A program made the position numbers. From the NCBI GenBank assembly GCA_036338695.1, contig JAYZBQ010000018.1:924-64923 (forward strand): a stretch of 64,000 bases of DNA, written 5' to 3'. Shown one piece after another: positions 60,001-63,000 of the stretch. The DNA comes from Myxococcota bacterium (GTDB lineage Bacteria; Myxococcota; UBA4151). Each line of letters begins with the position of its first letter. The first letter of the stretch is position 1.

Positions 60001-63000
60001 GCGTACCGGGCTCACCCACGGCGCCGCGCATCGAACGCAGCTCCTCGATCGACGAAAAATCGACATACGCGAGCCCTTGCGCGATCAGCTCCTCCGCCCA
60101 GCTCGCCATCTGCTCAAAATAGTCGGAGGCGAAGCGCACCTCGCCGGTCCACTCGAACCCCAGCCAGCGCACGTCGTTCATGATGGACTCGACGTATTCG
60201 GTGTCTTCGGTGGTCGGGTTGGTGTCGTCAAAGCGCAGGTGGCAGTCCCCACCATACTGAGCTGCGAGCCCAAAATTGACGCAGATCGCTTTGGCGTGAC
60301 CGATGTGGAGGTAGCCGTTGGGTTCGGGCGGAAAGCGAGTGATCACGCGCCCACCGTGGGTATCGGCCGCCAGGTCAGCGTCGATGATCTCGGTAATAAA
60401 ATTCGACAGCTTCTTTTCGCTCACAGCGCGCACTCCTCGAGTGCAGGCGATAATGCAGCGAGCGGGAGATCGCAACGCTTGAACGGTGGCGCCATTGCGG
60501 CGCGGCTTGGGCGGAGGCATACACCGTAGCATGGACACCCGGCTCGTCGCAGCAGCGATCCCCCTCTTTGGCTTGTTCATTGCCCTCGAGTGGTGGGTGG
60601 CGCGCCGCCGCCGCGTAACGATCTACCGACTCTTCGACGCGATCGCCGACCTGAGCTGCGGGATCGCACAGCAGCTTTGCTTGCTGGTCAGTCAAGCGCC
60701 CCTCTTGGTCGTCTACGCGTACCTCCAGAGTCACTATGGGCTGTGGACCTTTGAGAAGAGCCTCGGCACCTTCGCCCTCGCCTGGCTGATCAACGACTTC
60801 TTGTACTACTGGTGGCATCGCGCCAGCCACCGGATCAACTGGCTCTGGGCGCTGCACGTCGTTCACCACCAGAGCGAGGACTTCAACCTCGCTGTGGCGC
60901 TGCGACAGGCGATGTTCACCCACACAACCGCCATGATCTTTTATGCCCCGATGGCGCTGATGGGCTTCGACGTCGTCACGTTTGGGGTGGTGCTTGCGCT
61001 GAACACGCTCGTTCAGTTCTGGATCCACACCGAGCTGATCCGTGACTGCGGGCCGATCGAGTGGATCTTCAACACGCCGAGCCACCACCGGGTCCACCAC
61101 GGCATCAACGATCGCTACCTCGACACCAACTACGCCGGCTTCCTGATCATCTGGGATAAGCTCTTCGGCACCTTTGAGCGCGAAGAGGAAGAGGTCGTCT
61201 ACGGGATCACCAAACCGCTCAACAGCTTCAACCCGTTCTGGGCGAACACGCACTACTTCGTCGAGCTTGCGCAGCGCGCCTGGCGTCTAGAGCGCCTGCG
61301 CGACAAGCTGTGGGTTTGGTGGGCGCCGCCTGAGTGGCTCGGACAAGGCGAAGAGTCGCCGGCGCGCGCGCCTCAGCGACGCGCCGATCAGGTCAAATTC
61401 GACCGGGTCAGCTCGCCCGGTCGCACCGCGCTGGCTCTGGCCCTCTTTGGCGTGATTATGGCGGCGACGCTGGCGATGATCATCTACGGAAAAAGCCTGG
61501 GTTTCCTGCCGCTGATCGGTGCCATCGGAGGTCTGTATCTGATGCTCTGGATGGTGACGTGGGGCCGCAGCGCACCCGCAAAAATCTGATCGCTGGGTTG
61601 CGAATTGACTTCCGCATCCTAGATTGCGCATACACCTGCACAACCCTTTCGTTTAGGAGCGAAAACAATGAGCATTTTGGTTGGTCGTAAAGCCCCTGAT
61701 TTCACCACGCAAGCCGTGCTGAGCAGTGGCGAGATCGTCGAGGACTTTCAACTCAGTAGCGTCATCTCCGGCAAGTACGGTGTCGTCTTCTTCTACCCGC
61801 TGGACTTCACCTTCGTCTGCCCCAGCGAGATCATCGCTATGGACCACCGCGCCGCCAAGCTGCGCGAGCTGGGCTGTGAGATCGTCGGCATCTCGATCGA
61901 CTCGCACCACACCCACTTTGCGTGGCGCAACACCGCCATCGAGAACGGCGGGATCGGTCAGCTCAGCTACACGCTGGCGGCGGACATGAACCACACCATC
62001 GCTCAGTCCTACGGGATCCAAAGCGACGGCGGTGACTCCTACTACCCGGCGGGCGTCGCCATGCGCGCCACCTTCATCATCGACCAAAACGGTGTCGTTC
62101 GTCACCAGGTCGTCAACGATGAGCCGCTCGGGCGCAACATGGACGAGGTCGTCCGGATCGTCGAAGCCCTGCAGTTCTTCGAAGAGCACGGTCAAGTTTG
62201 CCCCGCAGGCTGGCAAAAGGGTCAGCCGGGTATGACCAACACCGCCGACGGTGTTGCGTCGTACCTCGCTGAAAACGCTGGCGACCTGTAAGTCTCCGAG
62301 CGAGCTTCAAAGCGAAGCGCGGCGCCTCATCACGAGGCGTCGTTCTTTTTTTGTGCGCTGAGACGCAAAGGCGAGCCGCGAATCTTGATGCGATCGGCGC
62401 TCCCACGTACAGTGGCGCACCATGAGTAACGTACGCTTTCATCTCAACGGTCAGCCGGTGCTGGCCGAGAACTTACAACCGACCTCGACGCTGCTGCGCT
62501 GGCTGCGCGAAAACAAAGGGCTCACGGGTACCAAAGAGGGCTGCGCAGAGGGCGACTGCGGCGCCTGCTCGGTCGTCATCGCTGACCCGCTCGGCGAGGG
62601 CGGCACGACCCTACGCTCGGTCAACTCGTGCTTGGTGCTCACCCCCACGCTCGAGGGGCAGCACGTGTTCACCGTCGAGGGGCTGCAAGCCGAAGACGGC
62701 ACCCCCCACCCCGTCCAAGAAGCGATGGTCAAGCACCTGGGTAGCCAGTGCGGCTACTGCACCCCCGGCTTCATCATGGCGATGGCTGAGGGGGCCCACC
62801 GAACGGACCTCGACGAGCCCTGGAAGCTCAATGACCAGCTCTGCGGGAACCTGTGTCGGTGCACGGGGTATCGACCGATCCGAGATGCGCTCCGAGACGT
62901 TGCGGGCACCTGCCCCGCTGACGGGCTCGCCCAAGCTCGAGCGGCTGGCGGCGCGGTCGGCGAGGTCCGCTCCGAGGGCTTCTCGCAGCCTCAGACGCTC

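Follow-up and report, generated by a model that had tools for sequence, protein, structure and literature searches.

The window, a 64,000-nt stretch of a Myxococcota genome (G000, 93.6% complete), encodes a protein of 352 aa, P0001, which is known from its sequence and on that basis matches animal alkylglycerol monooxygenase (AGMO; TMEM195, EC 1.14.16.5) in its catalytic core but lacks two features by which the animal family is defined, namely the pterin-associated Glu137 and the C-terminal region. We consider it a variant of the AGMO-like family rather than a demonstrated bacterial counterpart of animal AGMO. Positions in Table 1 count along the window; C2 and C19 are other contigs of the same genome.

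Table 1. Features of the predicted AGMO-like gene and its flanks within the window
Feature	Position	Strand	Basis
Predicted AGMO-like membrane di-iron oxygenase gene, stand-alone (P0001, 352 aa; fatty acid hydroxylase superfamily)	60531..61589	+	open frame, PF04116, homologues
Catalytic core, His96 to Asp209: nine essential His and equivalents of Gln162, Asp233, Asn235, Tyr236, Trp243 and Asp244 (human numbering)	60816..61157	+	alignment to vertebrate AGMO
Arg101 codon CGG, at the position of pterin-binding Glu137 in human AGMO	60831..60833	+	alignment
Shortened C-terminal region: predicted helices 296-322 and 325-343; no Tyr338 equivalent, stops ahead of the Asp384/Arg396 segment, no AGMP_C (PF24858)	61416..61589	+	
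glnS-YqeY, divergent neighbor, context only	58154..60424	-	
ahpC peroxiredoxin, downstream neighbor, context only	61668..62291	+	

The reading frame is intact from ATG to TGA (GC3 0.84), and the start is supported by homologues that open at the equivalent Met. FA_hydroxylase (PF04116) is the sole Pfam match of P0001 (E 7.6e-30; 104.5 bits against a cut-off of 31), and the eight-His motif of that superfamily is present together with the equivalents of His201, Trp243 and Asp244; two further PF04116 genes in G000 are both distant. Six vertebrate AGMOs, obtained from a search seeded with a nematode AGMO, share 37-42% identity with P0001 (E 1e-64 to 1e-69). The only NCBIfam match is to the ornithine lipid hydroxylase OlsE (NF052566), a distant member of the same superfamily, at 69.5 bits and far below the cut-off of 475. 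An AlphaFold2 model is nearly all helical (mean pLDDT 95). Among the PDB sequences searched there is no solved structure related by sequence to P0001, and a Foldseek search with the model gave no match at E<=0.001; among the listed chains only yeast Scs7p (4zr1), also of this superfamily, aligns across the model's core (Z 6.0, rmsd 5.7, 175 residues), and the VIA-align structure rows correspond mostly to the C-terminal helix pair.

No promoter-like site above chance was found at the gene, and no biosynthetic gene cluster surrounds it. The downstream ahpC adjoins P0001-type genes within the same genus but not in the sister genus, and across the long-type clade to which P0001 belongs the gene neighborhood shows no conservation among taxa, with recurring neighbors limited to close kin. 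In RNA run X1 a single 214-nt contig is identical to the P0001 gene, which is no proof of transcription; the remaining RNA cover lies over ahpC.

Residue numbers of human AGMO are those given in the available text of PMC3304488, PMC7911779 and PMC3617469, and they map onto snake AGMO at 22/22 sites. Fifteen residues are reported to be essential in the human enzyme, namely nine His, Gln162, Asp233, Asn235, Tyr236, Trp243 and Asp244 (PMC3304488, PMC7911779). All 15 are kept in P0001 when it is aligned with vertebrate AGMO, as is the equivalent of Gln197, and the claim of the earlier note that this 352-aa gene encodes a real AGMO relative is sustained by these residues together with the frame, the Pfam match and the identity to the six vertebrate proteins. 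In the available published text, Gln162, Asp233, Asn235 and Tyr236 are not among the residues listed as common to all animal fatty acid hydroxylases.

Glu137 is reported as the single residue of human AGMO tied to tetrahydrobiopterin affinity, with the E137A substitution raising the Km 18-fold and leaving 12.8% activity. The corresponding residue in P0001 is Arg101, and it is Arg in all nine proteins of the P0001 lineage (333-365 aa). Glu is present in 20/20 aligned animal-type rows and in 96/96 rows of the animal set that carry the motif; of the 124 rows P0211-P0334, 96 have Glu, 25 have no matching motif and three have another residue (one alga and two long proteins). The 121 closest homologues of P0001 include 66 with Glu and 49 with Arg, and outside the P0001 lineage Glu is kept in 66/111 close bacterial homologues. 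On a 144-row tree this position has changed at least 31 times while the catalytic residues stay. Tyr338, whose substitution in human AGMO (Y338A) reportedly leaves <5% activity, is absent from P0001 and present in 98/111 other bacterial homologues and 20/20 animal-type rows. The Asp384 column is absent from 9/9 proteins of the P0001 lineage (105/111 other bacterial homologues have an acidic residue there), as is Arg396 (kept in 102/111), and the C-terminal AGMO region is missing from the same nine. P0001 has no match to AGMP_C, to which turtle AGMO scores 6.8e-36, and animal AGMO is longer at about 445 aa. In similarity to turtle AGMO it ranks 164th of 236 bacterial rows, and given this rank and the four lost positions we place P0001 among the less animal-like members of the family. 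With these four positions changed, the pterin dependence that had been predicted for it is not supported, and it is in being fixed for Arg and shortened at the C terminus that its lineage differs from other bacterial homologues annotated as AGMO.

With short-type homologues as the root, the IQ-TREE tree built from 64 sequences of the core unites the animal and long-type bacterial proteins in one group (97/95), with P0001 in an 11-row subclade (starred in that tree). Wider sampling with FastTree (184 rows; 116 of 146 further 50%-identity representatives were added and 30 without a usable core left out) gives a eukaryote-like clade of 85 rows (support 99; Glu in 69) and, as its sister, a bacterial long clade of 80 rows (support 89; Glu in 40, Arg in 21) that spans multiple phyla and within which P0001 is deeply nested. 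Seven of ten eukaryote-clade rows looked up have eukaryotic names or sources. Proteins of Physarum, in which AGMO has been reported (PMC4758236), and Diphylleia fall in the eukaryotic AGMO clade and have Arg at position 137, and a Balamuthia protein has Thr. An AU test of 40 rows does not reject a tree joining the P0001 subclade with animals (p-AU 0.39), nor does it establish such a closer link. A special Myxococcota-to-eukaryote origin of AGMO was considered and rejected, the weak sister link of the 64-sequence tree (86/89) being gone with wider sampling. The kinship of P0001 with AGMO thus holds, the bacterial clade being sister to eukaryotic AGMO; as an orthologue the protein would at best be one among thousands of co-orthologues.

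A protein search with P0001 returns 7928 of its best 8000 candidates at E<=1e-30, and many of the homologues are already annotated as alkylglycerol monooxygenase by JGI; P0001 is another member of the very large bacterial group that carries this name or 'sterol desaturase family' in JGI and NCBI. P0001-like loci (80 kept of 131 confirmed) fall in the Bacteroidota, Acidobacteriota, Spirochaetota, Planctomycetota, Verrucomicrobiota, Pseudomonadota and Actinomycetota, and 60 plasmid records match the protein. Many bacteria with members of the P0001-type clade are not known for ether lipids. The available text of PMC13543475 says that no functional AGMO is known from bacteria, reports the annotation in 239 biofilm metagenome-assembled genomes and includes a tree. 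With loci in at least seven other phyla and bacterial AGMO-like genes in print, the gene is neither undescribed nor a trait of one phylum, as had been proposed. Among 201 Myxococcota genomes an AGMO-like match is found in 105 at E<=1e-20 and in 103 at E<=1e-40, and the count at the latter threshold without the unpublished genome G180 (102/200) is similar to the 94/200 given before. These positives cover 47/108 genera, 58 of the positive genomes coming from one family. Where six loci were sampled, in the two large-genome genera that are best covered, they proved to be paralogues of a different kind (short with Glu, or divergent with Arg or Thr), so the count mixes paralogous subfamilies. The P0001-type frame is intact in 4/4 good-quality genomes of its own family, representing two genera, and the shortened length is common to nine clusters; the closest homologues of P0001 (59-61% identity) are in the sister genus.

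In several relatives the AGMO-like protein or its gene is physically linked to enzymes of ether-lipid breakdown. Among 93 homologues longer than 616 aa, 11 are fused to a lysoplasmalogenase (YhhN) and 32 carry a beta-lactamase-like domain, and 18 of the 41 homologue rows of 642-658 aa contain an esterase domain (two are named Labilithrix). A home-made profile built from the YhhN parts finds YhhN adjoining the AGMO-like gene in six loci, in Bacteroidota and Micromonospora, and finds no neighbor match in the Myxococcota loci (mostly with flanks of 1.5-2.5 kb) and none in G000. Glu-type proteins outside the P0001 subclade account for 10/11 YhhN fusions and 6/6 YhhN neighbors; the Labilithrix esterase fusion P0133 lies in the same 11-row subclade as P0001. 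AGMO is reported to need a free sn-2 hydroxyl (PMC3617469), and the esterase fusion of P0133 fits this need. We suggest that these fusions and neighbors support an ether-lipid role for the clade and, only indirectly, for P0001.

The ether-lipid synthesis genes noted earlier are present in G000: an alkyl-DHAP synthase (AGPS; E 1.6e-163 to guinea-pig AGPS, PDB 4bby), a FAR-acyltransferase fusion and an NAD-dependent epimerase lie in this order at C2:1-5479. The same three genes in the same order form the Myxococcus xanthus operon MXAN_1676-1675-1674, which is described as the minor ether-lipid route of that organism (PMC9131029). It has been argued that FARAT and PEDS1 reached eukaryotes from myxobacteria (PMC13012113), and AGMO, alkylglycerol and TMEM195 do not occur in the main text of that report. 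Unlike in M. xanthus, neither a second FAR-domain protein (ElbD-like) nor a CarF match was found in the 93.6% complete G000. Lipid_desat gave no match in G000 either, with the search control also silent. The operon had been placed beside the P0001 gene; it is on a different contig, and in G010, a genome of the same genus, the two are at least about 10 kb apart. AGPS is found in 23/201 Myxococcota genomes, and it was not found in either of the two sister-genus genomes that carry the closest homologues of P0001; genomes without AGPS may make ether lipids by ElbD-type synthesis. The view that this bacterium both makes and turns over ether lipids is consistent with the co-occurrence of the genes in G000, but only 18 of the 105 AGMO-like genomes have AGPS. 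The synthesis operon is known myxobacterial biology, unlinked to the P0001 gene.

Our preferred reading, held tentatively and short of even confidence, is that P0001 is a di-iron oxygenase that cleaves O-alkyl lipids and uses a reductant that is either not a pterin or weakly bound. As a member of the bacterial long AGMO-like clade, P0001 would be a stand-alone integral-membrane protein with a non-haem di-iron center, hydroxylating C1 of the O-alkyl chain in alkylglycerols or lyso-alkyl phospholipids, and the resulting hemiacetal would yield a fatty aldehyde and the glycerol moiety; the source lipids could be the bacterium's own or scavenged. A donor protein, for instance a ferredoxin, or else a pterin held weakly would probably supply the electrons, with no high-affinity tetrahydrobiopterin site, because Arg replaces the pterin Glu and the AGMO features of the C terminus have been lost. 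This reading draws on the retention of all 15 essential residues, the grouping of long bacterial proteins with those of animals (97/95), the fixation of Arg in 9/9 proteins while the catalytic residues stay, the activity kept by E137A, the YhhN and esterase links in relatives, and the AGPS-FAR/AT operon, which could supply substrate. Against it are the different chemistry of the bacterial enzyme PRUB680 (below), the near restriction of YhhN links to Glu-type proteins and the lack of a YhhN match in G000, the failure of AGPS to track the gene (18/105; 0/2 in the sister genus), and the loss of a Tyr338 whose substitution leaves so little activity in human AGMO. G000 moreover has no cytochrome b5 match, and no electron-donor gene is fused or adjacent to the P0001 gene.

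PRUB680 of Pseudoalteromonas rubra, an AGMO-related enzyme that cyclizes prodigiosin (PMC7911779, PMC6667630, PMC7484904, PMC11130421; de Rond et al. 2017 as cited therein), is the sole characterized bacterial AGMO-like enzyme that we found reported, and its closest characterized homologue is AGMO. Like P0001 it is bacterial, AGMO-like and encoded away from any pathway cluster; it differs in forming a C-C bond in prodigiosin, and it is likened to P0001 here by description, not by sequence. In the literature found, consisting of main texts and including few subscription papers, there is neither an ether-cleavage assay of a bacterial AGMO homologue nor any survey of the Glu/Arg position, and bacterial breakdown of alkyl ether lipids is not addressed. 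PRUB680 raises the possibility, which we judge a little under one in three, that P0001 oxygenates or desaturates a different hydrophobic molecule (ester or ornithine lipid, alkyl chain or secondary metabolite) and that its likeness to AGMO reflects ancestry only. The huge size of the clade, its presence in numerous bacteria for which ether lipids are not known, the loss from the P0001 lineage of several residues important for ether cleavage, and the NCBIfam match to OlsE, far below cut-off as it is, are all in keeping with such a role; however, P0001 belongs to the long clade that neighbors eukaryotic AGMO rather than to the short one, its relatives have ether-lipid enzymes as fusion partners or neighbors, and the P0001 gene has no biosynthetic cluster around it.

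That P0001 is a true tetrahydropterin-dependent AGMO, using a bacterial pterin (tetrahydroneopterin, monapterin or folate) made via FolE, with a pteridine reductase to reduce it and the dehydratase to recycle it, seems to us improbable, at about one chance in five. As stated before, G000 has one Pterin_4a gene, which lies on C19 among unrelated genes, no match to Biopterin_H (PF00351), and no PTPS found in the assembly. The dehydratase had been taken to fit a pterin-dependent AGMO. It is present in 154/201 Myxococcota, compared with a strong phenylalanine-hydroxylase match in 41, and also in four control genomes (Thermus, Corynebacterium, Haloferax, Sulfolobus), none of which has a PF04116 or PF00351 match; being near-ubiquitous, it is therefore uninformative on this point. 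A role of the dehydratase in molybdenum-cofactor metabolism has been reported (PMC3223725), and a xanthine dehydrogenase is encoded within the window. Phenylalanine hydroxylase occurs in 10/16 Glu and 5/17 Arg genomes (Fisher p 0.08, or 0.15 without the unpublished G180), and the idea that the Glu/Arg state tracks this enzyme was abandoned when independent pairs, drawn from 42 genomes with kinship allowed for, gave no signal.

The lack of PTPS had been raised as an objection to pterin use, and we have dropped it: the gene is present in 4/5 family relatives, the G000 assembly lacks the corresponding region, valS included, so that the missing PTPS is probably an assembly gap, and the relatives' gene has the motif of the queuosine type, to which its neighbors also assign it in the sister genus. 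Nor would PTPS be required, since rat AGMO is reported to use tetrahydroneopterin equally well and tetrahydrofolate less so (PMC3617469). The absence of FolE from the sister genus was likewise discarded as a sign of pterin independence, both genomes having FolE2. G000 encodes FolB, FolP and a FolE-like protein that is short and divergent, its end at TAG being natural and common to 4/4 genomes of the genus. An SDR gene overlapping folB, a pteridine-reductase-like gene that the earlier note does not name, has as its best NCBIfam match the dihydropteridine/dihydrofolate reductase TmpR (E 1.1e-50, below the cut-off); folA was not found in G000, and this SDR may replace it. A supply of pterin is therefore possible, although these genes do not point to one. 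The Arg in the AGMO-clade proteins of Physarum and Diphylleia suggests that Glu137 may not be the whole site, but in P0001 its charge is reversed, where even Ala raises the Km 18-fold.

It is very unlikely that P0001 is a decaying or low-activity copy in which loss of Glu137, Tyr338 and the tail reflects relaxed selection, for although four activity-affecting positions are lost together and its similarity rank is low, the frame is intact in all four good-quality family genomes, nine clusters share the same shortened length, the metal ligands are all kept and the model is well folded.

That bacterial AGMO-like genes are widespread is already known and in print, as is, in the available text, the proposal that the synthesis operon was the source of eukaryotic FARAT. 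The AGMO clade could conceivably be bacterial in origin and split into pterin-using (Glu) and pterin-independent (Arg) ether-lipid cleavers, with the shortened Arg lineage a minimal tetrahydrobiopterin-free O-alkyl-cleaving oxygenase, although we consider this broader scheme doubtful. Natural Glu/Arg pairs within one clade offer a direct test of Glu137 as a determinant of pterin dependence, and full-length Glu-type proteins such as P0062 or P0081 and the YhhN fusion P0198 are better candidates than P0001 for a first bacterial AGMO activity. If the scheme is true, P0001 and its relatives would provide a small stand-in for an enzyme class without a solved structure among the PDB sequences searched, and would amount to a first pathway by which bacteria degrade alkyl ether lipids aerobically.

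The AGMO-like gene of the window lies next to a divergently oriented gene for a fusion of GlnRS with a C-terminal YqeY domain, a type that is already known, and beyond this lie secreted proteins, methyltransferase genes and sufE (see table). The secreted DUF4215/PPC pair also adjoins glnS in G010, a relative from the same genus. At both loci of the sister genus, which carries the closest homologues of the AGMO-like protein, the DUF1295 protein converging on the AGMO-like gene carries Kazal repeats.

Features in the window, at related loci and among homologues of the AGMO-like protein
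Feature	Location	Strand/orientation	Remarks
GlnRS with fused C-terminal YqeY domain	window 58154-60424	-	NF011291
Two tandem secreted proteins, Cys-rich DUF4215 repeats and PPC domains	window 54975-58140	-
Split rlmL and rlmK-like methyltransferase genes, and sufE	window 51625-53705, 54001-54468	-
AGMO-like gene abutting DUF1295 protein	L121:5723-7285; L122:1550-2941	convergent	sister genus
AGMO-like plus alpha/beta esterase fusion	within P0122-P0162		Labilithrix and kin
AGMO-like plus beta-lactamase-like domain fusion	within P0164-P0204		one row named Steroidobacteraceae
AGMO-like plus YhhN fusion	within P0184-P0209		Burkholderiales
Tandem AGMO-like genes, long Glu-type and short Glu-type	L100:5983-9621; L087		Bacteroidota
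Queuosine-precursor transporter, folB and overlapping SDR	C19:5149-7195 (L124)		genome under study
FolE homologue, short and divergent	C48:344169-344693; also L150-L152		genome under study

Across the homologue set the AGMO-like domain has three recurrent fusion partners: an alpha/beta esterase, a beta-lactamase-like domain and the lysoplasmalogenase YhhN. In Bacteroidota, a gene for a small conserved protein follows the tandem AGMO-like pair at both L100 and L087, and at L100 YhhN follows as well.

Several AGMO-clade proteins of eukaryotes (P0406, P0371 and P0410) lack the pterin-binding Glu137 of human AGMO; the position is Arg in those of Physarum and Diphylleia, and Thr in an eight-row clade that includes Balamuthia.

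The FolE homologue of the genome under study lacks the final stretch of the Pfam model; this short form is common to all four genomes of the genus, and the sister genus has FolE2 in its place. In G010 (contig C44, L145), valS and queD lie in a stretch of 9 kb that has no counterpart in the assembly under study, and this absence is probably an assembly gap. No match to folA was found in the genome; the SDR overlapping folB has the dihydropteridine/dihydrofolate reductase TmpR as its best match and is likely to be a DHFR replacement.
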